This document shows, in pieces, positions 26,801-60,500 of a stretch of DNA of 64,000 nt. Position numbers and translations under genes: made by a program. This DNA comes from Trichoplax sp. H2 (taxonomy: Eukaryota), in NCBI GenBank assembly GCA_003344405.1, contig NOWV01000010.1, positions 992,001-1,056,000 on the forward strand, in the 5' to 3' direction. The stretch's first letter is position 1; each line of letters opens with the position of its first letter. The notes under the pieces are model-generated. The model saw nothing but the letters and a program-made list of their open reading frames with translations. It was not told where the DNA came from and made no database searches.

Positions 26801-27294
26801 CAGTTTGGAGTTTAAAATTACTCTGTTGGCCTGATACAGCGATGACTGCTAGTTGTTGGAGTTTGGAAATGAAGAATGGCAATCACCATTATGATTTGTT
26901 GGTAAGCTATCTAATTTATCTACATTAATTAATAAAGGTAACAAAGTCAAAATATGCCATGCCGTAGTGCACTTGAGTGATCATCTTCATTACTACAAAG
27001 TAGAGTAGGACTTTGTATCGATGTCGGCAAGATGGGCAAAGTACAAAGTAAAAACTTGATTGACTTACCGGTAGCACTATCATCGAATGTGCGTAAATCG
27101 TAAGCATCGCAACATCGATAATTTGCAGCAGTGCCATTATCCCAAACGACAAACGCATCGGATCCTTCCATACTTCTGACGGTGCCAACATGGCCTTCAC
27201 CGCCATCTTGCTTGCCCCATTTCCAATCGGGTCCACGAATGACACGAGCACCGATACAAGGTAACAATCCTCTGGTCGAGCTGAGATTGCTCAT
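17853..27294 (-). CDS. MIB1: E3 ubiquitin ligase Mind bomb (Mib-Herc2, ZZ, Mib-Herc2, 2 Mib repeats, ankyrins, 3 RINGs)
   Basis: Exon 1 [27 protein letters not shown] finger [13 protein letters not shown] (~23300-23469). Second Herc2 [17 protein letters not shown]. Ankyrin exons at 19200-20560. Three RINGs, the last [44 protein letters not shown] (stop 17853-17855). Confidence 0.96.
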
Positions 27295-27939
27295 GCTTTC
27301 TTCTCCGTTACTGTTTTCCTAACCCCGAATAACTATCATATCAAGATGGAAATGATGGATTCACTAACCCATTGACATTTTCAACATCCATATTGATTTG
27401 TATTAAAATATCAAGGAAAAAAAAAAAAAAAATAGCTCAAAATGAAATTTCTATTAGCAAGTTGATGATACGAACATTTTTTTTTCCCCTTGCTCCTGTC
27501 GTATTCCAAAACTTGCAATCAATATGTTGAATTAAGAGTTGATTATACGCCTGTATGACCGACGGGATACTTTGATCGTTATTTTCAACAAGCAAATGAT
27601 GTTGTTACTATTGTACACTTGTCCAATATATTCAGAATAAGCGAATTGTTGGATGGCGGATACGACGTTAGTAGATCAAAGACGGCCAATGTTGTCAATC
27701 ATCATAGCCACAATATGTACAGTAAATATCAATCGCTTCTTCTCTTGTAAACTGTTGTAACAACAAAATCAAACTATTAATATCCTTCCTCCTCCATTTC
27801 AATCCTACCTCTCCAAGGCAATCAAATAATGTCGATCTTCTATAAACGAGTAGAATAGATGCAATGATGGAAAATAAAAAAAAGCGCTTACTAATACTTT
27901 AATCTTCCACTCTACAACAATCGCCTCGGTAAGCATGAT

Positions 27940-34800: not shown

Positions 34801-37800
34801 TAGAGTGTATTTAGTGTTAAAATATTTGTATTTATGATTGATACGCACATAAAAGTATTAATACTTAAAAGGCCCGCCAGTAATGAAAACTGAATCAAAT
34901 CGCAATAAAAAAATATTTTCAGTGTTATTATTGACTTTGGTCATACAGAATAGATTACATTTGAACTCATAGGATTTAATGGCGCATAACCTGCTTATAA
35001 ATGCAATGTTGTGATATTATTTCTTAAGTTAGGAACAGTGTATTCCAATCGTTTATAAATTATTAACATTCATTTCTGCATTTTTTATTCTTCTATCAAT
35101 CAATTAGGGAAAGCTGTTCTTTTTAGACAGCTTTGCTGATCCATTTGTTATTTTTAATAAGAGCTGGTTAAACCAATGTCTTACTAGTAATATTCCTTAC
35201 GATCAACATGTTGATGAAACATTCCAGGTATGAACATTAGTGATAGTATTTTAGAATTTTACCGTCACAGTATGCAATAAAGTCGTTCTATCCTAAATGG
35301 GTCTTTACGTATAGTATATCGCTACTGACACATTTCAAATAATGTCCTGTATTATCTATCATGACGAGATATTAACTATTAATAAGCTATTAAACAATAA
35401 TAATTACCACAGGTGAACATTTCATCATTGTATATTAAATAGTGATAACTTTCTCCAATTGGAAATATAATTATGTGTCGTAGTCTATTCTCCATCTTAA
35501 TACCTGGCATACTACTAAATCATAACTTTTAAATAACATGATAGAGAAATATTGACGAACTGCTAATCAACACTGGAGCTTGTTATATATCTTATTTCAA
35601 CTACGACGCTATTAATGAAAGTAACGGAAAGACATATACTGCAGATTTGCCAGATTCATCGGGGCTAGACATGGTAAATATGAGTAGTTGATTTGGATTA
35701 TATTAGTATTTAAATAAAATAGATATGTAAAAAGTAGATTGGAGAATAAAATTTAGTATGTAATCGCAACTACAGAGAATTCTAGCAATAATATCTTATC
35801 CTATATGGATCTAACTCATCATGAAAGATTTTTCGTGCTCACTAGATATTTAAATGAACCAAGCACATTAGATGTTACGTCCTAAGGAATCTATACTGAT
35901 TTACATTCAGAGTCTACCCTTAGAAACTTCAAAATATTTATGACTTTGTATAAAAGATTATTAGCCTTTAAACATTTAAATCATCAACAAAGCTATTGAA
36001 TGTTGTGATTCCAAAAGATGTATAATAATGTAAAGTAGCTATAAGTATTCACAGATTTTCGAAATATCCATAACTTTGCTTCGGCAAATTATTGGCTTTT
36101 AAATATTCAAATTAATGACACTATTGAATATTGGGATGATCAAAATGTGTAATAATTTACCGTACTAATCAACATTTTAAAGTTTACAAGATGCTTGCGA
36201 CTTTTAATTAGGAAAACTGTTGGCCTACAGTAGATGAAGCTGAATTTAGCACTGAAATCAAGTATACGATTTGGAACCTTCCTGTGATAGTGTTAAATCC
36301 TTTACTGGATAAAGCTATAGCACAGTGTTGTCGATTAGCTACTAATATAATTTTATCCTGGAAAGAAGGAGTACTCTTGCGATGTGGTCATATTCAATGT
36401 TTAATTATAAGGAAAGATAACAGCAAAATCTTGGAAGATAAAAATATGACTTTGCAGTTATTTGCAAAATGTTATGATATCGATGACAAAGAAGAAATAT
36501 GCCAAGAAAGTTTCTGGAATGTCGTATTGGATTTAGGATTATGTATCGAAGCAGTTCTGCATACTTCAAAGTTGATAGTCAAGGTAATGAGTTTATACTT
36601 ACATCTTCAATATTTATATTTGGTTTCTCAGTTAAAAAATTGCATATTTGTCTTGCGTTATATTGGGCTCCATAATCATTACATAAGTGTAATAAATTTC
36701 CTATGCATGTAATCATGCGATTAAAACTGATAAATCATGACTTTTAATATAAATTCTATCTAAAGTACATTTTAGTCCTTGGTATCCAACTAATGCACGC
36801 TAATTAAATAAAAATTTTAGTCAGAGCTCAATCTCAGTCATATTTATGTTCAAATTTACGATCATAAAGAGATAGAGATTTAGATTTTACTCAGAAATAC
36901 CAAGTCATTTTTTAAATTTTGGTCAAATCTCTGACTCAGTCGTATTAGTATGCGAAGATACATAGAAGAATGGCTACTATACCATAGGATCGTAGTCTGC
37001 GTATGAATAGGTATTGCCTTTGCTGAAAAAAGGATCTCAAACATGGAGAGATTGAAATAGTACTTCTTACATTATTGTGAGCTGATTAGGTTAAAGTTGA
37101 TTCTTCTTTCGTCCTGTTGCTTGTTTCAATGAATACTTGAAGGTTTTAGTATATACTAGTATTCTATTAATTATCGTAACAGTTTAATGAAAAAATGACT
37201 AACGATTGCCGTAGAGTAAAATAAGATCTTTGATTTATTATGCTAGAAAATTCTTTAATCATGAAAAGCTTATACCTTTATCTATAGAAAGAAGTAGCTT
37301 GTCCTAATTGCGTTAAAAATACAACATCGAAAATGCACTACCTTGGTATTAATGAAGTCAAGCAAACTCTGGCAAGCAATTCCGGTAAAGAATTAGTTTG
37401 TCAACAACAGAACAAGAGTATTTCTGTCCGTGATATACAATATTTTGGTAAGATTATCTTACTTCGTAACTATTGCATCATATCTTAATGGCTATTTTCG
37501 GATATTTTAAGTACGAGCCGCGAGATTTTGTCGTCTGAAACTGATAAATTCTTTACTATTATTTGCCTAATCCTATAAACTTTACTTTCGAAAAAATAAA
37601 TTTGATGTAAATCAATAGTATTACTCAGTTAAAATTAATGTCATAAATGAGATCTAAAATTAGCAATTCAAGCCGTTTTAACTAAATTCTAACCCACTTT
37701 CAACAATTTTTATTAGTCAATGGCAAATCATCATTTTGCGTAGGCCATCAATTAAGTTATTCTAATGATACTTTAGGCTGTACACTGTGCAAAAGGTTTG

Positions 37801-40800: not shown

Positions 40801-43800
40801 CCAAAGGGTTTATAAAAGTTATGCTTTATTGTAGGTTAGAAATGTGAAGTACAGTGAGGTAGTTACGGTAGATCAGCGTGCGAGCTATCGTGAGTAACGA
40901 GTAGAAGTATTAGACTGTAAGAGACAAACTAGAAGACTAACTGAGAGGCTAACGATTTCTGAGGTAGAAATCGCCGGTATTTATAGTTTTAAAGATAGAG
41001 CATATGCAGAGAATAGGATTGTGGAATTAGATACAACATATACCATAACAGGTTACAAAATAGCAGATGATTGTAGAAAAAAGCGAGTACCGTAATAACT
41101 AAATACAGTAGTCTATATATGATTGTAGAGTAAGCGGACTGTAGATCTGTCTAAATATTAGAGCAATACAACATGTCTATATTTAAGAGTAGAATATAGT
41201 TACAGTATATTCTAAATACACTACAATATTAATTGCTCCGGCATATTAACATGCAGTATAAAGGCTATTTATGCATAGAAGCACTAAACCCTAAAATCTT
41301 TCTCAGGTAAATCGATGCATTCAGAACACTATAAGGCAATCAAAATAAATCAATAGCGCGGATTATTAGAAGATTTGTTCTAGTACTCTCTACTGATAGA
41401 TACAGTTTACTAAGAAACAGTATAAAACCTTTTGCAATATACAGCGATTAAATACTTTAGTCTTTTCAGACAATTCCATGTGTTTAATCTTTAACTGTAT
41501 TATGTAGCTAAGGTAAATTAATAGACAGACCATGCATGATTTTCTTCTAGTAGGCTATGCTAATAATTACAGTAAGCTAACATATAAAGCTATTGTATAG
41601 AATGATTATGTATTTATTGTATATGAGCACAGCTTTATTGATTTAGTTAAGCATCAAAGTACTTTCCAACTCCTTGCTGTATCGAGAATACACATCTTAT
41701 ACTGTATATGCTATTCTAAGTACATATTAATCTACATAATACTATGTTAGGCTACAGTGCTGCATCATAATATGAAAGTAGCACTTCGTCTTAATTATGT
41801 ATAAATTGTATGTATGTATAGATATACGTCTAATTAGTTATACCATGGCTATACAATTACACATTAATTACATATACTCGTACGTAAATCTTAATAGCGT
41901 TTTTCACTACAATATTAAAGTTATTTTTCAGACAAATGCATCAGTAATAATATACAGCTGTCAAAGAAGATTATCATGCAAAAATTGTATCTATGGATTT
42001 GTAACTGTAAATGTTGTCAACAATAATAAATGCTATTAAATTGGCGCATATAAAATACGAAAATACACGTATGCTGTTATAAGTAAATGATTAAAATTCT
42101 TTCATTCGTTGCTGAAATCATTTTTTATCAGATTCATTACGATGGCTGGCAAGATTCCTATGATGAGACGATAAGTCGAGAAGTATTAAGGGGTAGAGAT
42201 AAGACAGCAATTTCACCCGATACTTCTATTAAAGTTGGCGATAAGGTGGAGGCTAAGTGGCATTCTACTTGGTATAAAGCAACAATTTTGCAGTGTTTCG
42301 AGAAAGAACAGGCAGCCTTCGTTAGATATGATGGTTATAGCTCCAGCTGGGATACTTGGTTCTCCGGTGATAGTCTTAAACCGTTAAAATCAAAGGATGA
42401 TAGCGAAGGTAATAAAACTATAGACAATGCTTATCAGAATTTTGATAATGTAATTGCATCCTATCCTTCGTCCCATTATATATTACTGATACATAATGTA
42501 AATGACTATTGAATAATATCAGAGCGTAAAGGAAAACCATTAAATCTTATTGAATGTATACAAGCTGAAAATGGACGTCCAGCTCCGTGCTATGCCTTTA
42601 ATGAGGTTTGCATTTGCTTTCATTATTTCATATATTGGAACTTTATATATTTTGATACTTTATATATGTGTTATACTAGATGAAAATGTAAGTATATAGC
42701 TATTATTGATTCTCGTTTCTGCTTTTAAATAGGAGCAAATAAGAATTAATCCAAAAAACTATCAATCTTGTCGTAGTATTCAAGGAAATTACTCAGGTTT
42801 GAAAGAAGATAATCGTATCCTAATATTCTACAACTAAGGTTACTTAATTTAGCGCTAATTTTTTATATCTATTAGCTGTACTACTAATAATGCTATCTCA
42901 GACACTGACCTAAACTATGATTATATGCCTACAATATATCAACTTAGAAAACTTTGTATATCATCTTTTTGCTTCATATGACGGATATTCTGCTTAGACG
43001 ACAATATTAGCCCTTAATATAAAGATGATACAATAACGCCCGTGTTTAAAGAATATTCAGGGTGACAGAAATATTTTACTTCTGACTTTCAACGTAATGA
43101 GCAGAACATCGATTACTTTTTATCGTTATCAGTAGATCGAGTTGTAATACTAATCTAGTTCGAGCCCTCCAAGTAATTGCACTGTAGCAGTTAATTTACA
43201 TTATTAAGAGTAGATTAAGTTTCAATCAGATAGCTTAAGTCCTTTGAATAGTAAAATATTTTGCAACAGCTGTACTTTAGATTGTTATGAAAGCTCTCAG
43301 AGTATTTACTCGTATATTGTAATTTCGTAGCGCCTACTATTCGTTGGTAGAATAGATCGAGTTCAAACTATCCAAGTGATTTGCTTTGCATACACACAAT
43401 TAAATTAGATATCTAATAGTTACTGTAAGTTCTCCGAGTACAAATTATATTGCCATAGAAATTGCTTTATATTATTACGTTTACATGAATTTTTCAAGAA
43501 ATAAAAGTCTTATGCAATTATTATTAACTGTTAGTGATCGAGAGACTGTCAGAAAGAAACTTAGCTATCGTTCTGAAAGAGATACTGGATGCTAGACGGT
43601 GGCAATATCCTATTATGATGTTAACATTACCAGAATTTACTGATTTAATCCAATTAAGCTGCCCTGTGCTGTCCCAGTTACAATATTGCCAAAGTTCAGT
43701 TGTTCACTGCTTATGCTATTCTCCAGGTAAATCGAAATAAATTTTTCTAGACAATTTTAAATCACATCTAGCCCTACACTACATATATTCTCATAATATC

Positions 43801-46800
43801 GCCCTACCCTAAATATTCTATGACAATTTAGCTAGTAAAAAATGCCGACCAATTTATCACAGGGTAGTACGTAATGGTTTACTTATTATGTATTCTTAAT
43901 TATATGCATTCTATGTAGGATTTCAACGTGGAATATCTCCGGCATTAGACCTGCATTTTCTTGCTAAGGAAGGTGATAAACTGGCTAAGAAAATTAATTT
44001 TTTAAATCCTAGCCAAGAAGATGCTCCTCTTCTGTGGTTTATAACGACCCTTTGCAAAACTTCTGCAATGGTATAAAAAATTACTTGATACAGTATTTGT
44101 GTTGTCTGAGCTAGAAATACTTAACCTTCAAATAGTAATTAAAAAATTTTTCTCATATTTATGGTAATTGCACATTCTTGTAAATTTTCAGGATTTAGTT
44201 GCCAGTACTGACGTTGCTGATGCGTTAGTAGGTACTAGCCTGGGACAAAACCCTGGTTTATCATTTCATCAAGTAAGGGCTGCACCTGTCTACACATTAT
44301 TACATTTATGTGTATACCAATAGCATCATTTACCTTTGGACCTGCAATTTAAAAATTTTTTAATCTTGTATCTATTCAGAAGTACTATTAACAAAGCTAT
44401 AGCGAATAAGTTTAAAAATTATATATTTTAATTTAGATCCAAAGGGCAATCAGGGAAACTATTGATATGATTAAAGCTCAAACCCAATTTAGCATGTATT
44501 GCTACAATTTATTAGATAGAGCTTCCCGGCTACGGAAGGAAATCAAAGACAGCATTATGGTAAACGAGACTTAAACATACAATTATAAGAGAAACGTCAC
44601 GTAGGACGAATAGAGTATAATGGCAATACTTTCAAGTTATATGATAATTTAGCCACCATTAAGGAACGAAAAATCAATAATAGTTTTAGCCTTTACGTGT
44701 GGCTATTAAATTTCACACACTCATAAAGATTTGATCTATTTATAATTTTAACTTAATGTATAGGAAATAGCGGAATATTCACCACGAACTGCAGATAAAT
44801 CTCATAGCCTTTTAAACAAGTATGATACTGGATATGGGCGCATTTTTGCATGTAACATTCACCATCAAGCAACTTTAAGCAGCAATTTACAATTAGAACA
44901 TTTCCCTATGTCACAGTGTACTTCTATGCCGACTTTGACTTATATTAACTTTTCTGATAATTGTATTACTCATCTACCAGCAGAATTCTTTCAGACATTT
45001 ACTCAACTTCTGTCCTTGAACTTGAACGGAAATTTACTCTCTTGTTTACCTAAAGGGATTAGTAAATTGAAAAAATTAAAATATTTGAATTTATCCAACA
45101 ATAAATTGACCGATTTGCCCGACGATTTCAAAGATTGCAGTCGAAATTTGCAGGAGTTAAATCTTGCCAGCAATTACTTAACATCTTTACCTAATTATAT
45201 TGGCAGCTTTATAAGCCTATTGGAGCTTGATCTTAGCTATAATCTCATTTCATCTTTACCCACCTCTCTATGCCGATTAACATCGTTAATAACCTTAAAT
45301 TTAGCAGGTCATCAACTCAAAGTACTACCATCGGGCTTAGATCAGTTATCATTATTGAAAAATTTAAATTTAAGTGGCATGCCAGTCATGGAGATTACTG
45401 AAGCATCGGTTTTACATCGAAATAACATGAGGGTTACATTAACCAAAGGTCAACCGAATCGACCTGTTAACGGATATGATAACGATGTAAGTAAATACAA
45501 TATTCAAACGAATCTAATATAAAATTTTGGGCACTGTTACAATACAAGATATCATACAAGTGTCGCTCGTATATGGTATCTCAAGGAGTATTAACCATTA
45601 TTAACTTATTAACAGGATTATTTAGATCTCTTTCAAGCTTGTGATGAAGATGGCAATCATGTTCTGGATTATCTAGAGTTAAATAAGCTGAATAACCTGC
45701 TATTTACTAAAATTGTCCGTTTGAACGAAATGTTTGATGAGAATAATGACAATCAGCAAAATGCATGGCCAATATTGGGACTTAAGAATCTGGAGAATTT
45801 AACGCTAGATTACTTGCCTATAAGATCAATCCCTGAAGATTTTGGAAACTGTTTAACCAATTTGAAAACATTAAGTTTACGCCATTGCTTACTATTGGAA
45901 TCGTTACCAGCATCATTAGGGGGATTGCATCTAACAAAGCTAGAAATTGTTGGTACAGAAAAAATGAGAACTCCGCCACCTGAAATCACAGCTAGAGGAT
46001 TAAATTCAGTGATGGCCTACTTAAAGCGCTTATCATATGGATCATCAGAATGTAAGCGTACCAAACTTATGATGGTAGGACTTGGAGGAGCTGGCAAAAC
46101 TAGGTATAAAGGCGTATACATCTTAAATAGTTTTATAGTAATCTTAACTGAATTTATAACATCTACTATGGCCGCGAAATTACGTTACTGATACTGTATA
46201 TTTGTTCTATTCTTGCTATCATTTGTCCGGTGTATATATATACTTGTCTAATGTCTATCTTAATTCATTAATATTATTACATAAATACCTGATAAATTTA
46301 TGCCAGTAATTAGTTCTTGCCTCTTAAGGCAGTTATTAGTATAGTGTAAAATATGACAGAAATTTACCAATGACATTTTTTAATTAAAATTTTTTCCAGT
46401 CTGTCTCGGTCGTTAAGATCAGCTTCCTTTAGTGATAAAACAACTGGTGAAGAAGCCATTACTGATGGAATTGATATTGCCATTTGGACTGTTGAAACAC
46501 CTGATAAACAAAAAATTGAATATAGTTTATGGGATTTCGCAGGACAGACATTATATTATAATACACATCAGGTTAGAATAGAATTAATTTGAAATAGCTT
46601 ATCTTTATTAACTAATTAATATACAGTATTCTCTGATAACAGACATACTATACGTTGCAATGATAAAACTTAATGATAATATCTTAATATTATTTATTAT
46701 CCATATATAGTTTTTCTTATCCAATCGTGCAGTGTACCTGCTGGTTTGGAATACACGTCTTGGCTACGAGCATGCTGGTTTGGAATTTTGGCTTAGCTCT

Positions 46801-49800
46801 ATATCTTGTCATGCCCCAGAAGCTCCGATTTTTGTTGTTGGTACACATTGTGATAAAGTAAGTACGGAAGAAAATGAAAACTAAAATAGACCAGAAGTTA
46901 AACTATCAAAATTTTATTAGTATTAATTGTAAAGTAAGCTTTAGTTCTGAACAATTAACAAGGTTGAAAAAAGTGAAATACCAAAAGGTCGCCTCCAAAA
47001 GTTTTATCCGCAGATCCAAGGCTTTTTTACAGTTAGCTCAGCAACTGGCCAAGTTAGTATTGTAGATTAGCAGTGCCCTAATGAATTCATTATAGGAACA
47101 AAATCTTTGACTTTTACTAAATCGCCTTCTTTAGACCTTCCTAAAAACTTTGTCATAGAGCGATACCACGATAGAGTCAATTAGTAAACTGGAAGGCATA
47201 AATAGTCTCTAATTATATAATTAAATTTCCAGTTTATCTTCATCGTAAATGATATCATTTTTCAATTTACGGAGCAAGTTTTGCATCATCTGGTCTTGTA
47301 AGTCCAATTATTTTGATACCTTTAGGGCATCCAAAAACTTTATGGCGATTTAATCGCTGTTACGTTGAAGCAAAAGTACATGGGTGAAAAAATTCCAAAC
47401 ATTTGGTTGGAGTATGAGAACTCTATTATAAGGTGAAATAGTTTGGAAGTCCTGTAAATTAAATTCATTATGAGATGTAAATATAGAAATTACTTAAAAT
47501 AATTTTCCAGTAAGAGGTTTACTATCAGGCTTAATCTTTGATATTTGCCTATTCTAGATAAGCTTTAGATGGTACATGACTTTACATTTATAAAAATGAA
47601 AATATTAATATATATTAAATCGTTAAATAAATTAATAGCTGCCGTAATAGGAGTAGTGTCCTATCGTGGAAGGAGATAACAGAAATTGCTTGCAACCATG
47701 GAATTTTCCAAGATGATGAAGTAATTTCTATATGATAATTAATTGGATTCTCATGTATGTGTTTGAAACTGAAATTTATAGAGATAGTAAAACAACAAAT
47801 CTCCTTCTCGGTTGCCCTCTTTAGCATCTTAAGTAGTTCAGTGACATCCCATTTTAATTACCGTAAAGTAAGTGTAGAAACAGCTTTGCAGCATCGCTTA
47901 TACATGAACCAACGCCAATTTGATTAGGTATACAAATAAATAGCATACGTATTATGAAAATAAACCTCATGTTTAATCATAGGAGAGAGCATGTGAAAAC
48001 ACGAGCAGTTTAATGGAGTCCGTTGTGTAACTCGGAATGCTAACAATTGCTCATCATCAACTACAGTAATCGCATATTTCCATTGCATTAACTATATAGA
48101 CATAAAATTAGACTAAAATATGCGCAGATAATATTAGAAAAATTACCATTACCTAAATGCGATCGATACTAATCAACTACTTCTATATATTATTAACTAT
48201 CACTTCTTAATTAAAATTATTACGATACGTTATTAGATTCGCGAAGCTGTCAAGTTACTAACAGATCTTGGATCAATCCAACATTTCGATACGGAAATGT
48301 TAAGAGAGGTAGTTGTAATCAATCCTCAGTGGATTGTAGATGTTATGGCTTGCGTTGTATCGGTCCACGATAGCCCTATAAAGGTAATTATGTAAGGGAA
48401 ATCAACCATTACCTTTTAAAATATTTAACTTGCAGTTATACCTATCGGCAACTTCTATCTAACAGTGAATGTTGTAACTGAATTCATGTTTGCATTGCTT
48501 CTTATTAATGATAAAAGACCGACTTCATATAATTCATTATTTTATAGAATGGTCGATTTCATCATAGTGACATGCAAAAGATTTGGTCAAAATATAATTC
48601 CAACTTACATAAATGGTTATTGGGCCTGACTGAACAATTCGATCTAAGCTTCTCACTACCTAATAAAAACACTAATTTAGTTCCATGCTTGTTAAACGAT
48701 GATGACGAAGAAGTAAGTATTTTATTTTTCAATACAAGTGCTTGAAAATTTTAATAATCGGATGCAAATTATAAGATTGAATCCAAACTTGTTCTATTTC
48801 ACGTTCTTCAAATTTTACTTCGTTATTAGACTGATGATTTAGATAAAGAAACCTTAGAAATGGACGGTATGAAGGAAACTAAAATGGTTTATACTTTTCA
48901 GTATCTGCCAGCAGGCTTATTTAATCGACTGCAGGTATGACCATGTTATAACGTTACTTTTCACATCCAGCTATAGTTAAAAGGATTTAGAATTTTGATG
49001 AACGAATCATAACATTAGGTCATAATACAAATTTTGTTACTTTGTAAATGTTAGGTTCGGCTATGTGAATTTACTGAAGACCAAACTATTAGCAAGCGAG
49101 GATCCAAATTAAAGAAGAATGGAAATTTTGCCGTCTTAAAACAATCAGAGTTAGTGATATAGCTAAAATTTCTTGTTTGACCTTTTTAGATATTAGATTA
49201 AACCTTTCATGGCTGTCATGTGAGAAATTAATTTTTTATATAGTCTTTTGAAACTCATATGGTCTCAAATAGCTAAAATTTCCCATTTAATTCTTTCTAG
49301 ACTTGAAATTAAGAGTTTTTTAGTTCTATTTAAATGTATTGATTAATTTATAAGTACTTAGCCTCAAGGTAAAACTTGCATTATCAAGATTTATCAGAAT
49401 TTCACGTTTAATCTTCTCTAGAAGCAGAGTTAAAAGTTTTGCTTACTTGAAAGCAATAGATTTATTTATATACAGTTCATTTAAGATAGTAAATATAATG
49501 TAAAAGGAAACAATCTATCAATTTACTGACATCTCCCAATCTATATGAATAACATTACTACCTTATCGATAATATCATGAATACCGAAATTAGGGCATTA
49601 AAATACGAGTATTGATTACAGTCGCACTCCGCTAACAGCCAGATTTACTGGAATTATTTAAGATTTCTTAGTAAATAAGAGTTTGATAATTAGCATTTAA
49701 TTATATCTGGAACATTCATACGCCTATAATCACAAATTGCCTTCCTTGCGACAACTGAAATTATATGTCCAAAATTAGAATTTCATTTTAATTTATTTGC

Positions 49801-52800
49801 ACACTTATCAGTTTGAAATTCACTCATAATCAGCTGTTTACGAGTTAATGACGAATTACCATGCGTTTGCTTACCTTCTTGTGTCATAAGAGATTACTCA
49901 CCTTTAATAACTGGAATTATTGATCAGAGAATGATTTAAGATTATAAAGTATACTTACTGATCTATTTATTTCATATAATGGCAATAGAAATAACTTAAT
50001 AGACCTTAACGTCAATGGTTTACGACCTGAAAATATGCTGTATCTAGTCAATGAGGTTTTGGAATCGTTAACTGCAGACGCTTTTCATGGCGTTCATTTT
50101 TACTATTTGGTACCTTGCCCTCACTGTTTACAAAATGTAAAGTTAACAAGTTTTATTTACTTTAGAGCTAGATTATAATTAAGTTTTGAAATGTTAAATA
50201 CTAATATGAGATCATGTTTTTGCATGATGGCGTAGGGATCTCGCGATCCATCCATGTTTTCTTCTAAGCGAATACGTAGGGCAAGAGAAGTCAAGGCGAT
50301 ATTTCTGCAATGTGATGCCAATTTCCATACAGTTTCCATTTCAGAGTTAGAAAGTATGGCATTATTTCTACTTAAAACTATGTTATAACTTAATCTTGTG
50401 ATCCTGATTACACAAATTTTGCAAGATGGAGATGCTTGAATGCATACTAAGATTATAAATACAATATATATACTATATTTGATACCAAAATCAAGGAATC
50501 TTACCACCAACATCCAGTGATGAATTCGACGTTCACTTACAAAATGCAATGCAAGGCTTGGATGCTTTAAGCGATAGTATTATGACAGACGTATACGTAA
50601 GTTACTGCGAAGATGATTTACCTGCAGAAGAAAATTCTAATGAAACATTACATGTCAAGAGACTGATGAAATCACTAGAGGGTGAAGGCTATAAATGGTA
50701 AACAGAATAGCGATTTTAATAATACTCTCCAGTAAAATGAAATATTAAGAGTTTCTACATAGAAAACAGATGTTGGCTAATGTCATTTAATATTTAAAAT
50801 TAATTTATGATTAAGCTATTCTCTAAGAATACGTTGCTTTTTATTGCTCCTGTGAACAAAGTGTTTCTAATAAAAATCTTACCTTTATTAACTCATGAGT
50901 TGTTAAAAATTATATCAATGTAGACGATGGAGATATGTGAAAATTGATATTGATATAAATTTTGATTTAATAGCGATGCTAGAGATTATCGAGAAAACTA
51001 TAGCCTAGAAAATATAGCTGTTGGAATGAAACAGTCACGAGTAAGTTCGTAGTCTATCCCTAGATAGCTTCTAGGTTACAACTTTCATGAAATAATTTCG
51101 AATGCATCTAACCCACTTACGCTATTTTAATGAGAGTCTAAATCCAAATATGTTTGATGTTGAAGAAATAATATCTATTTTAGGTCGATAATAGCTACTT
51201 TAATGTTAATAATAGTGCGCAAATTTTAGCCAAATATCCATGTGAATGTTTCTTTATTTAAACTGAAAATTCGAGGAGATAATAATCAATCAATCTGATT
51301 TCTAATCATTGCTCAATTTAGGCTATTATAATTATGTTGTCTGATAATTATGAACGTAATGAACAGTGCCGATCTGAATTCTCTCATGCTTATGAACTGT
51401 TAAAAAAACCAATCATTTTAGCGGTTATTGGTAAAACTAATAATTGGACAAAAACAAATCTTGGCTTTCTTGTATCTAGTATGGTAAGAAGTGAATATCA
51501 TAAGCCTAAAACTGTTTTCTTTGTTCATACATAGGCATTCTTTAAAAATTTTATATGTTATTTCACATAATGCTGTTACTAATATGATATATTTTATCTA
51601 CCAGTTATATATAGATTTTTCCAATATGCAATTATACAATGAGAAACTAGATGAAATTATTGATCAAGTAGAAAAAAAGACCCATAAGAAAGTGGTAAGC
51701 ATATAATCATTAGGTAATTTAAATAAACATATTAAATGGAAGGCTTTCATCACGAGTAATAACACCTACTAATTGGGTTTCATTATTGATTTTATACGTG
51801 AATATATATTATTGATTTCTTTCCTTTAGCAACATTTGCAGCAGACGGATTGCTTTATTAGTTACTGCTGGAAAAATTCAGCCAATGCTTGCGAATTAGG
51901 AATTCAGCAGGTGGATGGTGCAATTGGAAAAGGTTTGTGAACTATCCAGCTAATATAATGTAAATCTATATTGAACTCACACTTTCAACTAATAAATTGA
52001 ACGCGTCTAAGTTTTCAAAGTCTTTTGTAGCCGATATAGACGGGATTAACTTTAAATTATGTGTCTTGAACTGCTAATAGCTAAATTGTTTATATGAATT
52101 AATATAATTAATCTAATTTGCACATTTACTATAATTCTCATAATGGCAGTTGATCCTAGAGACTTGAAGGATCAACTGAAAGCAAAGGGAATAACTTGTT
52201 GGATGGACATAGAACAGCTAGGAAAGGTATTAGCACATCCATTACTCAGAAGAAATAAGTTTTTATAAAAACTTGCAGATGATTCATTATGAATTTTCTA
52301 TACTTTTTTTAAAAGATTAAATACTTGAAAGTTATCGTAATTGACTTGATCTACTTATATGCAAACTAACCAACGTTTAAATATTTGTGGTATTGGTATA
52401 ACTTTCTTCAGGCGGGTTTATTTGAAGAAATTTCCATTGGTCTACGGAAATCAAAATTGTTTGTAGCTTGTGTTTCCGATGAGGTAAAGCTAGCTTTGAC
52501 ATAATAGTTTATGTATGTTATATTATCGGTTGCAGATGGTTTTATAACATAATATTAATTTACTAGAACTTCTCTAATAACTTTGCTTTATAACAATAAT
52601 TTGCTCTATTAGATTAGGTATCATTTATTAAATTTCTTCGTTCGCTTTTAATAGTACGTGAAATCCAATAATTGCATAATGGAATTTCGGTTTGCTGTGA
52701 CTACATTACGACTACCAACCGTTTTAGCCATTATAGGAACAGGCATCAAATGGCAGTATTCAGAAGTACGAATAGGATGAGATTACTTTAATTTTTTATT

Positions 52801-55114
52801 ATAAGTTTATGTAAGGGTTTCAATTAAAAAACTTTAAAGTATAGCTAGCTGAAGAATAATTTTATTGTCGACGGGTATTTTATAGGTTGGAATGTTGGCA
52901 GCTAATTTGCCCATGGTAAGTGCCATATTCTTTTACAGTAATTAATTAAGTTAAATTAAATAAATGAATAAAAAATAATTATTAAATCCTTAAAATCTTT
53001 TTATATATACTTGTACAGTTCAATTTGCAAGGAAATGATTCAGAAATGTCGTCCGAAAAACTTCTATCATTCATAGTGGAGAAAATTTCTACTTTAATCA
53101 AGCCCGAAGACAATCTATTGGCAACAGCCCCTAATATTGGAAAGGAAAGGAAATTACAGGACCGATCAGCCCAATTTCAGGTAAATTTAATGGATAGTAA
53201 ATAACTACAGTGAAAGTTACATTGTTACGTAAAATCATTATTACTGCTGATAAAAATTTGCGACATGATACTACGAGACACAGTATATCGACATCTGATA
53301 CTCTGACACTGCTAGATACAGAAATAATTTTCAATTTTATCGCTATAAGAATATCAAGTGGTTGATTCTTAATATTATAATGTTTAAGAGATTAATCTGG
53401 CATGATTTAGATTATTGTATCAAATTCATAACTTACGCTAAGAGATATTGTTTTATTTATAAAATCTTGATTAAGTAATTGCTTTCTCTACGATTTAATT
53501 ACATATTATCGATGCAATATTCACTTATATTTTGTAAGGTAAAATGATATCATTGAGAAATATTGCGGTGAATTTAAGAAATTTTTATTCTTATAGGAAA
53601 TGCTTGAATTAGCACAGCGAAATTTAATTCGCCAAGTCAGCAGTGTAGCTAATAGAATATCGACATCGTACCCTCGGCTATTCCTCATCGATTGGGACGA
53701 TAAACATGACGTAATACACGTATATTGCGGATAACTTATTTGACTGAATTTTCATTTAACTATGAAATTAAAATACGGTTAACAAGCATTTTAAATCGCA
53801 TTAAATTCGAGATGTGTTGTTACTATTTAGTAATTGATACTAAAAATTGTGTATTAAACAATCAATAGATTTACAAACTGCTTTCAACTATCGTCTGTGT
53901 CAGTCTGATAGTCACAATTAATGAAGTAAAATTAAAATTTACTCCATCATGAAGACTATCAATATCGAAATAGGAATCTTTGCAACTGATCCAATTTTAT
54001 CAACTTAGGGATCAGCAAATTTGGAATCCTCTAGAGAGTATTACATAAAAGTATTATGTGAGCATGAAGAGGTAAATTGCTTTACAGATATTATTATGAT
54101 ATCTTATGTCGCATTTAGTGCAGATAACTGGATGATTTTCTAGTAGACAAAAGTATAAATAGATTAAAAGGCAAGCGTAAAATGAGTAAAGGTTACGCAT
54201 AGAATTGCTATATATTATTCATACGATTAATTGGATAATTTTTATTGCAGGGTTGGCATTGTCCAGAAAGTGGAGGCACATTTCCCATCCCAGGTGGTTC
54301 ATCACAAATGAAATTGTTGGTAAAAAATACAGCAAAACATTTACTTCGAGTTATGTCTATCATGAAGCACAACAATACAGGATTTAATTCGCTTAATCAA
54401 TCGAATGAAGATGAATTTTTTGATTATGTAGCATCGGTATGTTACAGAGTTTATATTATAAATGTTATAAATTCCAACTTTCAACAAAATCAATTTATAA
54501 TCAAATGATTAACCAATTATCCCTCCCTCCTTTACTAGGCTGCTAAATCAAGTGATCTTAATATCGGACTTAATTTTACATCTTTCATATCATTTATGGA
54601 TGAATTAAAAATTGAAAATATCGGATTATCAAGGTTAGTAGATAGATTCACTAACTATAGCTCGCTGACCATAAAAATTATAAGTACGTATAACTGGTGT
54701 TGACTTCTGTCTTTAACTGTTCTTTTCTTGCTTCTATGCAAATAACTAGTGTGTGTGCTTTATATCCAGTTTGTGCACTGCTCCACTGTGATCATCTTTA
54801 ATCATACTAAAGCTATTAATTGTAGTCATCAATTTCAATTTTGTTGTTCTATCAAATACAGGACTCATCTTCCGAATGGTAAAGTGTTATGGTTATGCGA
54901 CAAGCATAAAGCTGCTAAACATTTTACTTTAGATCATCTAAGTAGTGACTCATCGAATCAACAAGCCAAGCAGATTAATCATGTCGCTGATGTTCAACAA
55001 CCAAGTGTTACATTGGCAAAGCCAAGGACTAAATTTGCAGCAGCTGCAGTTACTGTAGCGGCATCCCAGGGATTATCCAAGAGTTCAAAGTCTAGCGTTT
55101 GCTCTGTTATGTAA
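31875..55114 (+). CDS. Giant kinase-less Roco-family protein: LRR-Roc/COR(degenerate)-Cys rich-SPRY-SH3-MBT-Tudor-Tudor-LRR/EF-Roc-COR-TIR-TIR-Cys/His domain-CaaX; >50 exons, ~2,800-3,000 aa
   Basis: GT-AG exons join in compatible phase from a probable ATG at 31875 to TAA 55112-55114. The second Roc is canonical (KLMMVGLGGAGKTSL, TDGIDI, WDFAGQTLYYNTHQFF, VVGTHCDK) and its COR reads VVINPQWIVDVM. The start and a few small exons are uncertain. Confidence 0.85.
32308..32771 (+). other. Roco gene: N-terminal cysteine-containing (FBXL/AMN1-type) LRRs
   Basis: CPKIATLICDGCNNLTDAVFQSLIEYCQDLTTISFNYCPKLTHKAL. Confidence 0.85.
32901..37447 (+). other. Roco gene: first, degenerate Roc-COR module
   Basis: P-loop RINVIGNRGVGKST. 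WLNLVNYKCPNSITILVGTHAE parallels Roc2 WLSSISCHAPEAPIFVVGTHCD. COR-like LKHLHLQGKLFFLDSFADPFVIFNKSWL, LSWKEGVLL and VACPNC. No DxxG G3 motif seen. Confidence 0.7.
38170..38857 (+). other. Roco gene: SPRY-like domain
   Basis: FGLVSEHHDSRLPPGFTDKSVGFSLIDNKLF..KLSCCLD..VSFVVD..GYYPMI matches the SPRY PGW..S.gy/GCG/yP pattern. Confidence 0.7.
39050..39870 (+). other. Roco gene: SH3 domain (two exons)
   Basis: VVIKDYSKLNTNYIASSIGEIVHILEKTNNDHYKAKNLSEQSGLIPIDCIK. Confidence 0.7.
39962..42408 (+). other. Roco gene: MBT-like repeat followed by two Tudor/chromo-barrel domains
   Basis: LQKGDWIE..IDSPNIHPLGWALSTKYEVTSPTG (MBT); KGQRVEIKYSSSWYKGTV..KIHYDGWQDSYDE; KVGDKVEAKWHSTWYKATI..FVRYDGYSSSWDTW. Confidence 0.75.
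40740..41225 (-). mobile_element. Probable solo LTR (~486 bp) inside a Roco-gene intron, antisense to the host
   Basis: On the minus strand it starts TGTAGTG and ends CATCACA. TATAAATA (40978-40985) lies upstream of AATAAA (40825-40830). Flanks are GTATT/ATATT (4 of 5 match, possible TSD). A second copy is at 1-421. Confidence 0.6.
44908..46030 (+). other. Roco gene: typical LRR array interrupted by an EF-hand-like motif
   Basis: Repeated LxxLNLSxNxLxxLP. Loop DEDGNHVLDYLE at 45643-45678. Confidence 0.9.
46053..50350 (+). other. Roco gene: canonical Roc GTPase and COR domain
   Basis: G1 GLGGAGKT, G2 TDG, G3 WDFAGQ, G4 GTHCD, G5 VSS. COR MGEKIPNIW, LTDLGSIQHF, LPAGLFNRLQVRL, LVPCPHC. Confidence 0.95.
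50495..53180 (+). other. Roco gene: two tandem TIR (TIR_2-like) domains
   Basis: TIR1: DVYVSY..IAVGMKQSRAIIIMLSDNYERNEQCRSEF. TIR2: DCFISYCW..LKAKGITCWMDIEQLGKAGLFEEISIGLRKSKLFVACVSDEYVKSNNCIMEF. Confidence 0.9.
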
Positions 55115-56829
55115 AATTTGGCTGTATATTTTTGTTACAATTACATAGACAAACTCGACTAGGAACTCCTTAAAATAATTCTCCTTTTTAAAAAACTCTC
55201 AAGTATTCCTTATTAATGAGTAAAACTGTTTCAAGAGTACCAGACTCGATTCTGTTCGACATCTTTTAAACTTATTTATCATAATTTAAATATGATTACT
55301 ATTTCAACATCAGCTCTACTAATAATAGATACAATACTCTGTCATGTTGGATAAGTGATTGACTATTGATCAATAATTTGAGTATAGCATCTCCGAATAG
55401 ATTATTCACACGATATTCACCCCAAATTGTCAATAGATTGTTTGACTTAACTAGCGATGATATAATATTTACTTTATTTTTTCCTTTAATGAAACTTTAT
55501 CTGTACTATTCATTTATAAACTAACTGTAGATTCTAGACCAGACGAAAATGATTGAGAAAAATCATTTAAAATGTAACATTGCCTTTACCGATAAGTACA
55601 TCTAACGTAATGTAAGTGAACTTGTATTCATATAACTTGATCTTACCTTATTGTTTATAGCATCGTCATAATATTTCATAGCGCAACGTATTTGTACTCT
55701 TGATTATTCATAGTGGTTGATTGTAGATTATAGACCAAGCAGAATAACTATATAATGTCGATTAAGACGCAATTTATTCTTGTTGATCAGTCGGTCAAGG
55801 TATCATAAGTGAGCTTGGATTACATGATTGTATCATATCCTGTATAACGGCACTTGCCACTCTATTTAATGTTAGGAATCATAAATTAATTATTATAGAT
55901 CAACGAAACGATTGGACAAGATTATTGTTTAAAATACAGTTTATTGCTACTGATGACTTGGTCTAATGTACTGTAAATGAGTTTGGATTGATATGATGGC
56001 ATCTTTGTTGTGTTACTGATATTTATCATGAAGTTTTATGACAGTAATCATAAATTATAGGTCAACAAACCATCTAGATAGGATCGTTTAAAATGATATT
56101 TATCCCTACGGATGAGTTGATCTAATGTGCTACAGTTATGCTTGTATTGACGCAATTGCATCTTGTGGTGTTTATATCGTTTGTTATGACATTTTATGGC
56201 ATCTTTATATCCTCGATTATTTGTAGAGGATGACTAATGAAGATAATAAGCATAATTTGGCAATAGTTTTGATATACCGTAATAACCTCTAAACCCATGT
56301 TCCAAAGGAACTTGTACTGTTTATCCATGAGTTTTAAGTGATTCTAATTACAAGCTTTTAACCGTGGATATTTCGATCGTCTATTTTCCTTGTTATATTA
56401 TTATTTCATTATGCTCATATTTTCTTTGTCATGTATTACGTATGATAACAATTATACACTCATACTAAAAATAAAATATATAGATTAGAACAACGAATAA
56501 AGTACTATTATAAGAGGATTGATAACTATAGTGTCGACCAACTTCTGGTGATATCCTTTTGTGTTCAAATGTGCTGTAGTAAAGCTATAATAATTAGGAC
56601 TGATTTATACATTTAACCTACGATGTATCAATATAGTATTACTATTTATATGTATGCTATGGTATAGACCAACTTCTACTGATATCATTTTATGTTCAAA
56701 TGTAGAGTATTCAAGTTTTAAGAATATTAGGATTAACTTATACATCCAACCTACAATGACGACGTTCGGTAGTGTTATAAGGTATACATGCACAATAGTA
56801 CATATAGTCTAGTTAACGTAAGATGAGCT

Positions 56830-57085
56830 GGATACAATTACATGGAAATCAAGCTTGAGTTTGTAATATTTCAATATACTGTACGTGACAAAATACTGCA
56901 TGTCATTAAGTGAAAATCCAATTTTAAATTTGTAATATTCCAATAGATACGATGAAATACTATATACAATTATATGGAAATCAAGATTGAATTTATAATA
57001 TTTCGATAGATGCGGCAAGATACTGCATATCTAGTACAGTGAATTATATACTTTAAATTTACAATATTCCGATATATGCGGCATC
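56830..57085. repeat. Degenerate tandem repeat (~60-70 bp segments)
   Basis: caatta.atggaaatcaag.ttga.ttt.taatatttc at ~56835 and ~56967, with related aaattt..aatattcc segments. Confidence 0.6.
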
Positions 57086-57546
57086 CAGATGATTACAATT
57101 AGTCACTGATTGCTATTGCCATGCTAGGCAATCTGATCATTCTAATGCAATTTGTAGTTCCACTTGTAGTCACGATAATTTACTATAGTATATATAATTG
57201 CTGTAAAGTATACACTAGATCCTTAAAGAACTTACTCCATTCACAGTACTACTACCGATACACTAGACCGCGTGCTATACTGTGGCCTATAAACGATCTG
57301 GAATGTATATCTTCTCTACTAAGACCCTATCGTAGTTCACTAGTGTAAAGCTAGTACAAATACTATACTGTAACCAGACGAGGACACCTCTTGCTCCATT
57401 CGTCTTATTAAATTGCAGGAAGAGGCAGTTTTGGGAGAAGATTCCGTCCTAAAAAGTATTTTTAATATTAAATTACATCATTCATTGCAATCTCCTGGTA
57501 CTGTAGTAAGGCGAGTTGAGCTGTAAAAACCGCTATAGCAGCTACG

Positions 57547-60500
57547 ATGGAAGATACATATAAATTAGAAAGAAATGATCATCAACAGGATGATGAGAGG
57601 TAAGCTAAAGAGTAGGTTAGTAGTCGTTTTTGCGTTGCTGCATGGGAGGAAATGAGATATCACTGCTGTTAATTGGAAAATTGCACAGATACTTTTATCA
57701 ATATTGCGTGAGATAGAGCTATTCTTGAGTCCTTAACGACAAAACTTGGATATGACAGATGTAGATAGATACCTTGAAGACAGTACTGTATTGTTCATGG
57801 TCTTGATTACTCTTTGCCATCGTTGGTATTCGTTTTGCGTTGCCAAATAGGAAGAAATGAACTATCACTACATTCATTACATGATTGCACAGTTACGAGT
57901 ACATTTATCAACATCGAATGAGATAGAGCTATTCTTGAGTCCCTGATGACAGAACTTGGATATGATAGATGTAGATAAATACCTTAACGACAGTACTGTA
58001 TTGTCCATACTCTTGATTTCCTATTCTATGCTATCGTTAGCATTCGTTTTGCGTTGCCAAATGAGAAGAAGTTACCTATTGATACTTTGCAATGCTTAGA
58101 TTAAAAGTACTGCATTGCCCATGGTCTAGATTTCCTACTCTATTCTATCGTGTACACCTATGCAGCAGACTTAAGCCACGAATGTAGTTAATAGCATGTT
58201 GCATAGTGGCCTCCTTTTATACTTGACTATTCCCTAATTCATTGCAATATTATTATTAATAATAACGGTTGCAGGAGATCTGACATAACCCGATACTTTA
58301 TTATCTACAGTGCCAAGATTTAAAACCTCTGAAGGTTCAACAACATCCAATAGACATAACTCAGTTTTATACAAATTATTCGTACAGTTTATACCATTCA
58401 GTATAAACAGGAACTAATCAATTATAGTCTTATGCTACTATTATCTTGATTTAGTGGCTACAATTTGGTGCGAAGCTAAAGAATTCATCGTTCACAATAT
58501 ATTATTGCTGCTGAGGCAGTCTTGACTGCCGATTCTTCGTTGATCATTTAAAGATTACATCGCGTACTTGAATCAACTTATCTTCGATATCCCATCACCT
58601 TATAGCGTATATAAAATGTTATTTTATAGCCACTGATTTCAGATGCTTTGCTTCTATAGTTTATAAAAATTTATGGCAATTAATCGTTTTCAAGATTACT
58701 ACTATAGTATAATCATACAATGCAATCGATATGACTACAAGTAGCTTACACTACACATGACTGTGTTAACCATTTAAAAATTTTTTCTTCTTTTTATAGA
58801 TTCCAAGCTGGTTAGTGTTATGCTAGATTAGGATAAGTATTGGGGTTCAGCTGATTTATATCAAAGATCGAAGCTTCTTTATGTCTTACGAGATATACGT
58901 ATCACACTAATTATTAATATTTGTCCTGTTGCTCTTTATATCTATGGTCGAAAGAGCATGAAGATGACTACGAACAGTGGGATGAAGAAGAAGATGAAGA
59001 TTTCGAAATAGATTGGACCCGATCTAGTGGTAAACCTGAACCTAATACTCGTATACTAGTAAAATTCTTTCAACGTAGATTTCAAGCTAGGGTATACAGT
59101 ACGGTAGATTTGTTTTTATCTATACTAATGTAAATTTTTACTATCATTTCTTTCCTATATAATATTATGATAGATTTGACCAAAAAGCTTAACACTTCCA
59201 CTAATTTTAAGGTATGTACCGTACCGTATGTGTTTCTTATGAGACTTTCTTTTTTGCAGCCTATACTAATTTTCCTATGATTTACTAACTGTTTAATTGC
59301 ACCACTTTGTCGTGGAGTAGATATTAATTGACTATTAATTTTATACATGTATCCTATCCTTGGAAAAATTAACTCACTTATCTGATTCTAAATATCAGAC
59401 TAATGGTAATACGTTGCAGGTACTCTTGATAATTTTCAATTTTTAGTTGTATCCATTAGTATTCTTGGTTTCTTACCATTTTATTTAAACCACCTCTGCA
59501 CTGTGTAGATGCAAGACCTTCAAAGCTATTTGTTAATTTATTCGATGTCTTTCATTGTTTAATAGCCAAAGCAAAAATCGTACGGAAAATATGCAAATCG
59601 AATTTGTTTAGGTATTTATTTTAAAAATATTTCCTTAAATTGAGGTGTTATTATTTTATAGTAATTATTAGGTGCATCCTATCTTTCAACTCCCAACCTT
59701 ACCCTTATTCGCTAGATAAACTTGATGTCACTTTATCTAAGGAAGCCGCAAATTTGGTTCTAGAAACAGAAAAGAGAAATTCGTCTTCTCGGTTAGTAAA
59801 CTTAATCCATCTAGAAACCTCTGCAATATTGACATACGAATGCAATAGAATAGAAAAAGATATTATTTATACTATAGAATCAGATGTTTGTTGCAGATAT
59901 AATTTAGCACTTTCTTTAAACTAGTTCATTCGATTAAGGGATAAAATTTCTCTTAGTAGCAATTGATATGTTCTAATTGAATATAACTAATAATTATATA
60001 TTATTAATTTCAGACTGCGTGAGAAAGATAAGGCTGATCGAGCTACTGTTGAACAGGTATGAGCTAAAGATTATGTTAGCATTTTACTTATCGGCCGGGT
60101 TTTATAGTGTTATGTTATCTAATCCACTATCTGTTAGGTACTCGATCCGAGGACAAGAATGATCCTTTTTAAACTACTTGACCGAAATATCATAAGCAGC
60201 ATAAACGGTTGTGTTAGTACAGGGAAGGAGGTAAAAGTTTAACTCAATATGAACGTACTAAAATTAAATTCTCCATTTCTATACCGTGATTACATCATTA
60301 TATTACAGGCTAACGTTTATCACGCATCTGTTAATAATGGAGAAGAAAGAGCAATAAAGGTTTGTATGTCACTGTAGTTTTTTAAATGACTCTTTAAGTG
60401 CAATTTGTCATCAAGTGTTAAAATATCTTTTTCTATAGATCTATAAAACCTCAATATTAGTCTTTAAGGATCGCGATAAATATGTTAGCGGAGAATTTAG

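Follow-up and report, generated by a model that had tools for sequence, protein, structure and literature searches.

A ROCO tandem-TIR gene of Trichoplax sp. H2 with one conserved, probably NAD-processing TIR domain and one diverged partner

The 64,000-nucleotide stretch of Trichoplax sp. H2 DNA analysed here (contig NOWV01000010.1, positions 992,001 to 1,056,000 of the forward strand; hereafter the window, to whose own numbering all positions refer) carries on its + strand a gene in which leucine-rich repeats (LRRs) and a Roc-COR module precede two successive TIR domains, TIR1 and TIR2, each with a glutamate in helix alpha-C. The question raised by this locus is whether the paired glutamates make its product a GTPase-controlled double enzyme acting on nicotinamide adenine dinucleotide (NAD+), as an initial annotation of the DNA had proposed. 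Our analysis mostly clarifies: the gene is a regular member of a widespread, barely studied, already annotated family of invertebrate ROCO-TIR proteins, the architecture of which is in print, and the paired Glu is weaker evidence than it appeared. Judged by sequence, the signature expected of an NAD-cleaving enzyme is strongly conserved in TIR2 only. The reading that we prefer, with a probability of roughly 0.55, is that TIR2 is an NAD-processing enzyme and TIR1 its diverged partner, with Roc-COR as the switch and a C-terminal CaaX motif as the membrane anchor.

Read directly from the DNA of the + strand, both glutamates are where they had been placed: the TIR1 Glu is GAA at 51376-51378, in a frame that reads NEQCRSEF, and the TIR2 Glu is GAA at 52682-52684, in a frame that reads SNNCIMEF. 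The range originally assigned to the pair, 50495-53180, ends at a true donor site (53180) but starts one base ahead of the exon, which begins at 50496. That the tandem lies right behind Roc-COR was borne out by Pfam matches to COR-A and COR-B, by the Roc motifs and by colinear homologs.

The two TIRs have fared very differently within the family. In the 54 full-tandem rows used for the counts, window included, the TIR2 Glu column has E in 53 (and in 138 of 146 aligned TIR2 segments), whereas the TIR1 column has E in only 11 (19 of 107 aligned segments), the other rows carrying L (16), I (8), M (6), Q (4), A (4), V (3), S (1) or F (1). None of the 20 named bilaterians has the TIR1 Glu, its place being taken by L, I, M, Q, A, S or F; both named non-bilaterians among the full rows, Thecamonas and a Stylophora cluster, have Glu in both TIRs. 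Columns conserved to at least 90% number 23 of 150 in TIR2 and 1 of 144 in TIR1, and this scarcity of conserved columns indicates relaxed constraint on the sequence of TIR1. When 22 TIR2 columns conserved to at least 90% are taken as a signature, the TIR2 of the window has all 22 residues (family TIR2 median 22, minimum 18) and its TIR1 has 12 (family TIR1 median 7.5, range 2-15); the window protein as a whole equals the consensus at 32 of the 33 columns conserved to at least 80%. The near-invariant TIR2 residues concentrate in the AA loop, the end of beta-B and alpha-C, and it is in TIR2 only, not in TIR1, that the pocket is conserved across orthologs. A Glu at the catalytic position of alpha-C is nevertheless found in both domains of the window, in TIR2 by alignment and in TIR1 by its spacing from a Cys and its position on the helix in a structural model: the TIR1 Glu lies three residues past the conserved Cys and is the sixth residue of helix alpha-C, just as the Glu of TIR2 is. 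Whether ancestral or regained, the TIR1 Glu is not conserved across the family in the aligned rows.

If both TIRs were active NADases, a Roc-COR dimer would gather four catalytic TIRs, as first suggested. The equivalent placement of the TIR1 Glu agrees with this, as do the 12 of 22 signature residues in the TIR1 of the window, above the family median of 7.5, and the Glu in both TIRs of Thecamonas and Stylophora (two of two named non-bilaterians). The phylogeny also leaves room for it. FastTree places the window protein beside amphioxus, within the clade that lacks the TIR1 Glu, yet a tree in which 37 crown rows were held together without the window protein was not rejected by an approximately unbiased (AU) test (p 0.918, with a short free search and with groups defined only after inspection of a first tree), and the held-together tree lay 42 log-likelihood units above the short free search. 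The window protein is thereby allowed a position outside the bilaterian clade, so that its TIR1 Glu may be ancestral and still used. A regain of the TIR1 Glu in the window protein had also been considered and was dropped, given the AU result and a neighbouring MIB1 exon that points to a probably placozoan-like source of the window. The case for two active domains is nonetheless opposed by the absence of the TIR1 Glu from 43 of the 54 full tandems and from all 20 named bilaterians, and by the single column of 144 conserved to at least 90%. Nor are the two TIRs of the window equivalent. Of the 22 residues of the TIR2 signature, 10 are missing from TIR1, including W.NS in the AA loop, DPR, the W in W.D and the Ser ahead of the conserved Cys, this Ser being the counterpart of S68 in the bacterial NADase Cat1; the second half of the signature (S-Y..C..E-A-P-G-W) is retained, in favour of two active domains. 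Because the TIR1 Glu is not conserved (11 of 54 tandems, 0 of 20 named bilaterians) and these residues are gone, four active TIRs per dimer are unlikely and two are the better guess; catalysis by both domains appears to us quite improbable.

The case for TIR2 as an enzyme comes from its sequence relatives. Profile and structure work was based on homologs rather than on the spliced window protein. Compared with the sequences of the Protein Data Bank (PDB), the family profile has its best match, and thus its closest solved sequence relative, in the Cat1 NADase (PDB 9mud, E 4.6e-5); the alignment covers only about 60 residues of the beta-B to alpha-C region, and it sets the invariant D (of CW.D), S (of S.NC) and E of TIR2 opposite D33, S68 and E74 of Cat1. 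According to the accessible part of the Cat1 paper, these three residues line the NADase site together with K121 and Y122 of a second TIR, the site being made from two stacked TIRs, and alanine mutants of the active site are reported as defective (PMC12162218). The TIR2 Glu column also stands opposite the Glu in the WCLDEL of the plant TIR 7xoz; MyD88 has Q there. SARM1 gave no sequence-level match in this PDB profile search. The proposal that both glutamates are catalytic thus gains support from the alignment for TIR2, the Glu of which stands opposite E74, but not for TIR1, where the Glu is no family feature.

For the fold, an AlphaFold2 model was available of the tandem of a hemichordate homolog (P0001; mean predicted local distance difference test score, pLDDT, 86.8; predicted TM-score, pTM, 0.62), 38% identical to the tandem of the window. 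Both halves of this tandem are predicted to have the flavodoxin-like, five-stranded alpha/beta fold of TIRs, with Z 14-16.1 to solved TIRs, and a Foldseek search with the model ranked SARM1 first. In VIA-align, TIR2 of P0001 (residues 176-330) matched the SARM1 TIR (561-700) with Z 15.5 and a root mean square deviation (rmsd) of 2.4 A over 129 residues; its other matches include Hydra TRR-2 (Z 16.1) and MyD88 (Z 15.4). TIR1 of P0001 (residues 25-169) matched RUN1 (Z 15.7, rmsd 2.8 A, 137 aligned) and SPARTA (Z 15.7). A structural alignment to the SARM1 TIR had been named as a check on the original proposal; the homolog TIR2 does fit SARM1, but it fits the adaptor MyD88 equally well. We therefore set the fold search aside as a means of telling enzymes from adaptors, its ties within 1 Z unit being uninformative.

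These ties bear on an alternative in which both TIRs are adaptors, the tandem being a scaffold that recruits TIR proteins in TLR-like or MyD88-like signalling and the Glu being structural. Adaptor TIRs fit the fold as well as enzymes do, and the Aplysia proteins with an MBT/EF-hand-LRR-ROC-COR-TIR layout are treated as TLR-like or MyD88-like in the part of the source open to us (PMC9334734). As far as the accessible text of a recent preprint goes, no product was obtained in E. coli from 49 of the 61 animal TIRs with a Glu that were tested (10.64898/2026.04.20.719644). On the other hand, the 22 near-invariant TIR2 residues lie in elements aligned with the NAD site of Cat1, and the family is present in the protist Thecamonas. 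The RDxxPG Box 2 of the BB loop, assigned to the TLR, IL-1R, TIRAP and MyD88 groups (PMC7075850), could be read in neither TIR of the window, TIR2 having W-M-D-I-E-Q-L-G in that region. Taken together, purely adaptor-type TIRs seem to us possible but doubtful.

A third account keeps TIR2 as an enzyme and gives it another chemistry or substrate, such as 2',3'-cyclic nucleotide monophosphate (cNMP) synthesis, base exchange or ADP-ribose transfer, in place of plain NAD+ hydrolysis or cyclisation. A nucleic-acid-directed 2',3'-cNMP synthetase activity has been reported for some plant TIRs. The conserved S-Y.W.NS and DPR motifs of the family have no counterpart in the Cat1 alignment, which spans beta-B to alpha-C only, and the specificity of the pocket may therefore differ. 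Nothing in our analysis points to nucleic-acid binding, however, and in the accessible part of the preprint all activities of animal TIRs are NAD+-derived (10.64898/2026.04.20.719644); we rate this account as highly improbable.

Several points weigh against the NAD-processing reading of TIR2 itself. The case for catalysis in the family draws on sequence conservation and alignment, the structural model comes from a homolog 38-46% identical and not from the window protein, and the fold search ties Hydra TRR-2 and MyD88 with SARM1 and RUN1. More than 70% of all TIRs, adaptors among them, carry the Glu (PMC7075850); in a 2026 preprint from the Sorek laboratory, as far as its accessible text goes, 12 of 61 Glu-bearing animal TIRs were active and TLR2 was inactive despite its Glu (10.64898/2026.04.20.719644). 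Glu by itself is thus weak evidence of activity, and its presence in both TIRs is therefore weaker evidence than it had seemed. The accessible portion of the same preprint also describes Glu-dependent production of cyclic ADP-ribose (cADPR) by diverse non-TLR animal TIRs and names, in the legend of Figure 3, LRR, Roc and COR among the architectures of the active proteins, but the Roc-COR protein concerned may be unrelated to the family of the window or non-animal (10.64898/2026.04.20.719644). As to the switch, CtRoco exists mainly as a monomer when bound to GTP and as a dimer without nucleotide (Roco review), so that any GTPase control may run in either direction and dimerisation driven by GTP is not to be assumed.

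With these reservations, the NAD-processing reading of TIR2 can be drawn out as a mechanism, in which the region supplies the effector end of a large ROCO protein. TIR2 would be a synthase of a cADPR-type signal or a consumer of NAD+, with the Glu at 52682-52684 as its catalytic residue, and TIR1, non-catalytic despite its Glu in the window, would serve as an assembly partner or as the second half of a composite active site modelled on the two-TIR site of Cat1. Activation would follow when the Roc-COR switch and the membrane anchor gather molecules and the TIR module clusters, the LRRs and N-terminal domains forming the sensing or autoinhibitory part. We infer the catalysis, the role of TIR1, the gating by the GTPase and the prenylation. 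LRRK2 at the membrane forms dimers or oligomers and has a higher activity (Roco review), which would fit a CaaX-anchored ROCO; since CtRoco is monomeric with GTP and LRRK2 is oligomeric at the membrane, clustering at the membrane is a better-founded trigger than GTP-induced dimerisation.

Comparison with known systems sets this mechanism in context. SARM1 activity depends on TIR clustering. The homolog TIR2 shares with SARM1 the fold (Z 15.5) and the alpha-C Glu, but the ARM-SAM-SAM-TIR layout was not seen in the homologs or window exons scanned, the family has a tandem in place of a single TIR, and oligomerisation is proposed to run through Roc-COR and the membrane instead of a SAM ring. Cat1, despite the alignment of D33, S68 and E74 with the D, S and E of the family, is a bacterial CARF-TIR protein activated by filamentation with cyclic tetra-adenylate (cA4). 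Plant TIR-type NB-ARC-LRR receptors (TNLs) and bacterial LRR-Roc-COR-TIR proteins combine, like the window gene, sensing by LRRs with an NTPase as switch and a TIR as effector, and plant TIRs match the homolog model with Z 14-15.7; TNLs, however, have an N-terminal TIR and a STAND NB-ARC ATPase, whereas in the window gene a Ras-like Roc GTPase is followed by a C-terminal tandem TIR. Roc-COR conflict systems have been discussed before (PMC7159879).

If TIR2 is active, the gene would encode a GTPase-gated animal TIR enzyme, joining a ROCO switch of the LRRK/MFHAS1 type to NAD-derived signalling on a principle that plant TNLs and bacterial TIR defence systems also follow. The prediction that follows is that the TIR2 Glu matters family-wide and the TIR1 Glu, if at all, only in non-bilaterian members such as the window protein. 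A more speculative extension, unlikely in its entirety, takes the asymmetric pair further: a pseudo-enzyme TIR1 would complete or gate the composite site of TIR2, a Roc-COR GTPase that cycles at a membrane on a farnesyl tether would switch it on, and the adjacent domain of unknown fold would read or relay the nucleotide signal, making the family an animal and pre-animal counterpart of plant TNL and bacterial Thoeris-type signalling that was lost in vertebrates.

The assignment of the domains combines the window with its homologs. In the exons of the window, Pfam finds COR-A (E 2e-9) and COR-B (E 4.9e-11), and the spliced translation has the Roc motifs G1 (GLGGAGKT), G3 (DFAGQ) and G4 (THCD); in homologs Roc scores E about 1e-21, and Roc, COR-A and COR-B together span E 1e-21 to 1e-34. 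A Roc GTPase is thus followed directly by COR-A and COR-B, which is the ROCO arrangement. Single TIR exons of the window fall under the Pfam cut-off (TIR_2, 16.7 bits versus 28; E 0.011 for 51322-51534 and E 0.13 for 52098-52268, both unspliced and too short). Single exons, again too short for the purpose, likewise gave 0 matches for TIR1 in a set of 5.8 billion proteins, and 0 matches and one irrelevant match for TIR1 and TIR2 among PDB sequences. The colinear homologs each have two TIR_2 stretches (P0001 with 90.7 bits, P0016 with 94.2 bits). ARM or SAM domains had no Pfam match in the six homologs or the window exons scanned, with the far N-terminus only partly modelled.

How common is such a protein? 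A search with the LRR-Roc exon returned 14 proteins, five of which carry TIR_2; the sources of these five are a hemichordate, a gastropod, a nemertean, a bivalve and a flatworm, and in tblastn four of them keep the order of the window from Roc and COR over TIR1 and TIR2 to an additional C-terminal exon. With a profile built on the tandem, 3284 cluster representatives match at E<=1e-3, of which 145 also reach E<=1e-30. Named members include Branchiostoma (annotated MFHAS1, 3282 aa), Haliotis, Lingula, Pecten, Stylophora and the apusomonad Thecamonas trahens, with further members in Rotaria, Dimorphilus, Macrostomum, Cichlidogyrus, Tubulanus and several molluscs. The family thus ranges from a protist to amphioxus, and since Thecamonas has the layout LRR-Roc-COR-TIR-TIR, it is older than the TLR/MyD88 pathways of animals.

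The general layout is chromo/MBT-LRR-Roc-COR-TIR1-TIR2-C-terminal domain-CaaX. Among the 54 full tandems, all 25 that extend at least 450 aa upstream carry Roc-COR, a search with the window copy finds the C-terminal domain in 29 of 43 tandems with at least 180 aa downstream, and 20 of the 29 members carrying this domain end in C-x-x-x. Branchiostoma lanceolatum CAH1232773.1 ('MFHAS1') is 42% identical to the window protein over 1462 aa, colinear and with the same domain order, to which the amphioxus protein adds two MBT repeats. With these invertebrate ROCO-TIR proteins the window protein shares the chromo/MBT-type N-terminus, LRR, Roc, COR-A/B, tandem TIR_2, C-terminal domain and CaaX end, and it differs in having the TIR1 Glu, which the 20 named bilaterians lack. 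The closest tandem in the databases is 45.6% identical, and no close ortholog of the window protein was found there. No functional study of the ROCO tandem-TIR family was found in the literature searched; the asymmetry of the TIRs, the unmatched C-terminal domain and the conserved CaaX end were not described in the papers found, whose supplements lay outside the scope of the search.

Within the same genus, the Trichoplax adhaerens protein TRIADDRAFT_58269 (P0002), with an MBT-LRR-Roc-COR layout, stops about 48 residues into the stretch aligned with the linker and the start of TIR1 in the window (q1697-1744 of 1784). This public gene model probably ends too early and may have lost a tandem TIR in this way. 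A domain of the methyl-lysine-reader type on a ROCO-TIR protein is also seen in relatives, with MBT repeats in those of amphioxus, Trichoplax and Aplysia and Tudor in Stylophora.

At the level of the DNA, a GC content of about 0.28-0.39 and few long open reading frames give the window a eukaryotic character, and stop-to-stop frames together with reading of the DNA reveal a series of short exons with GT..AG borders on the + strand. Roughly the exonic third of the locus is represented in public RNA runs, and contigs from four of these were compared with the window over 42000-58000. Among the RNA joints listed, 15 of 15 are GT..AG and present in four of four runs, in agreement with the gene model: nine lie in Roc-COR, four around TIR2 (52483/52655, 52765/52886, 52915/53019 and 53180/53597, each in all four runs) and two further downstream. 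The gene is spliced, expressed and multi-exon, and long spliced contigs are among the RNA evidence. The junctions of TIR1 and the first three of TIR2 were placed by GT/AG sites, open frame and colinearity with homologs. COR joints are backed by RNA as far as 48934/49055, the last three COR junctions being uncertain and picked by GT/AG, frame and homology; the uncertain junctions of the model are 49149/49950, 50136/50236, 50353/50496 and 54633/54862. The partial model, which starts at 44764, has 1470 residues without an internal stop and ends with CSVM and a stop at 55114. The transcript continues upstream of the LRRs, as the same RNA contigs cover 42000-42406 and 44763-45486. The features are as follows.

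42087 to 42406, + strand: exon of a chromo/Tudor-knot/MBT-like reader domain (Pfam MSL3_chromo-like E 1.3e-8, Tudor-knot E 5.5e-6).
44764 to 46062, + strand: LRR exons with a weak EF-hand-like stretch (44764-45486 and the 5' part of 45616-46103; Pfam LRR_8 E 1.6e-21, RNA contigs, LRR colinearity with homologs).
46063 to 47052, + strand: Roc GTPase exons (end of 45616-46103; 46400-46571; 46711-46857; 46963-47052; spliced translation, all joints in four of four RNA runs).
47326 to 50353, + strand: COR-A/COR-B exons (47326-47432, 47639-47720, 48237-48383, 48548-48712, 48830-48934, 49055-49149, 49950-50136, 50236-50353; Pfam).
50496 to 51694, + strand: conserved helical linker and divergent TIR1 (50496-50697, 50974-51040, 51322-51483, 51605-51694; DNA reading, tblastn colinearity with four homologs).
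51376 to 51378, + strand: TIR1 Glu codon GAA (residue 984 of the partial model, alpha-C position).
51830 to 53180, + strand: TIR2, the conserved enzyme-like TIR (51830-51932, 52150-52226, 52412-52483, 52655-52765, 52886-52915, 53019-53180; RNA joints, signature residues).
52682 to 52684, + strand: TIR2 Glu codon GAA, the probable catalytic Glu (residue 1143 of the partial model).
53597 to 55099, + strand: C-terminal domain without known fold and Ser/Lys-rich tail (53597-53710, 54009-54071, 54251-54436, 54539-54633, 54862-55114; homolog alignment).
55100 to 55114, + strand: CaaX-like C-terminus CSVM and stop (translation).
55115 to 56490, + strand: probable 3' untranslated region (unspliced RNA contig pieces 54860-56490).

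The domain that follows TIR2 comprises about 200 residues and is conserved, with the motifs AQR.F.RQ, YPRLF, LCEHE.GWH and GK..WLC..H. A model of the Haliotis homolog is confident (pLDDT 86.6, pTM 0.81). The domain has no Pfam match in homologs or the window, and searches with structure gave none either: among solved structures the best Foldseek hit has E 1.6 (none at E<=0.001), among 48,161 chains the best VIA match has Z 3.8 (none at Z>=5), and the ESM Atlas returned no match. The CSVM end, by its CaaX-like sequence, may be a prenylation motif that anchors the protein in a membrane.

Some minor observations concern the sequence and its surroundings. RNA contigs of different runs depart from the window in single letters, both inside the TIR exons (T>C at 50602, G>A at 53121, C>T at 53129) and at about 80 further places in 42000-58000, mostly by transitions; strain or allele differences are the probable cause. 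Of the 20 N in the window, none lies within translated exons.

Upstream, two long open frames on the + strand, 32308-32775 and 36212-36712, weakly resemble N-terminal parts of relatives (a Haliotis relative at E 5.7e-4 and a Trichoplax relative at E 1e-3), and neither matches a Pfam family above threshold; judging from these frames, the gene may start more than 12 kb upstream of the LRR exon. The neighbour on the opposite strand (26947-27318 and 21293-21634, - strand) is an E3 ligase of the MIB1 type (MIB_HERC2, E 8.8e-16), and the best full-coverage match of its exon is the MIB1 of Trichoplax sp. H2, with 71% identity over 93% of the query.

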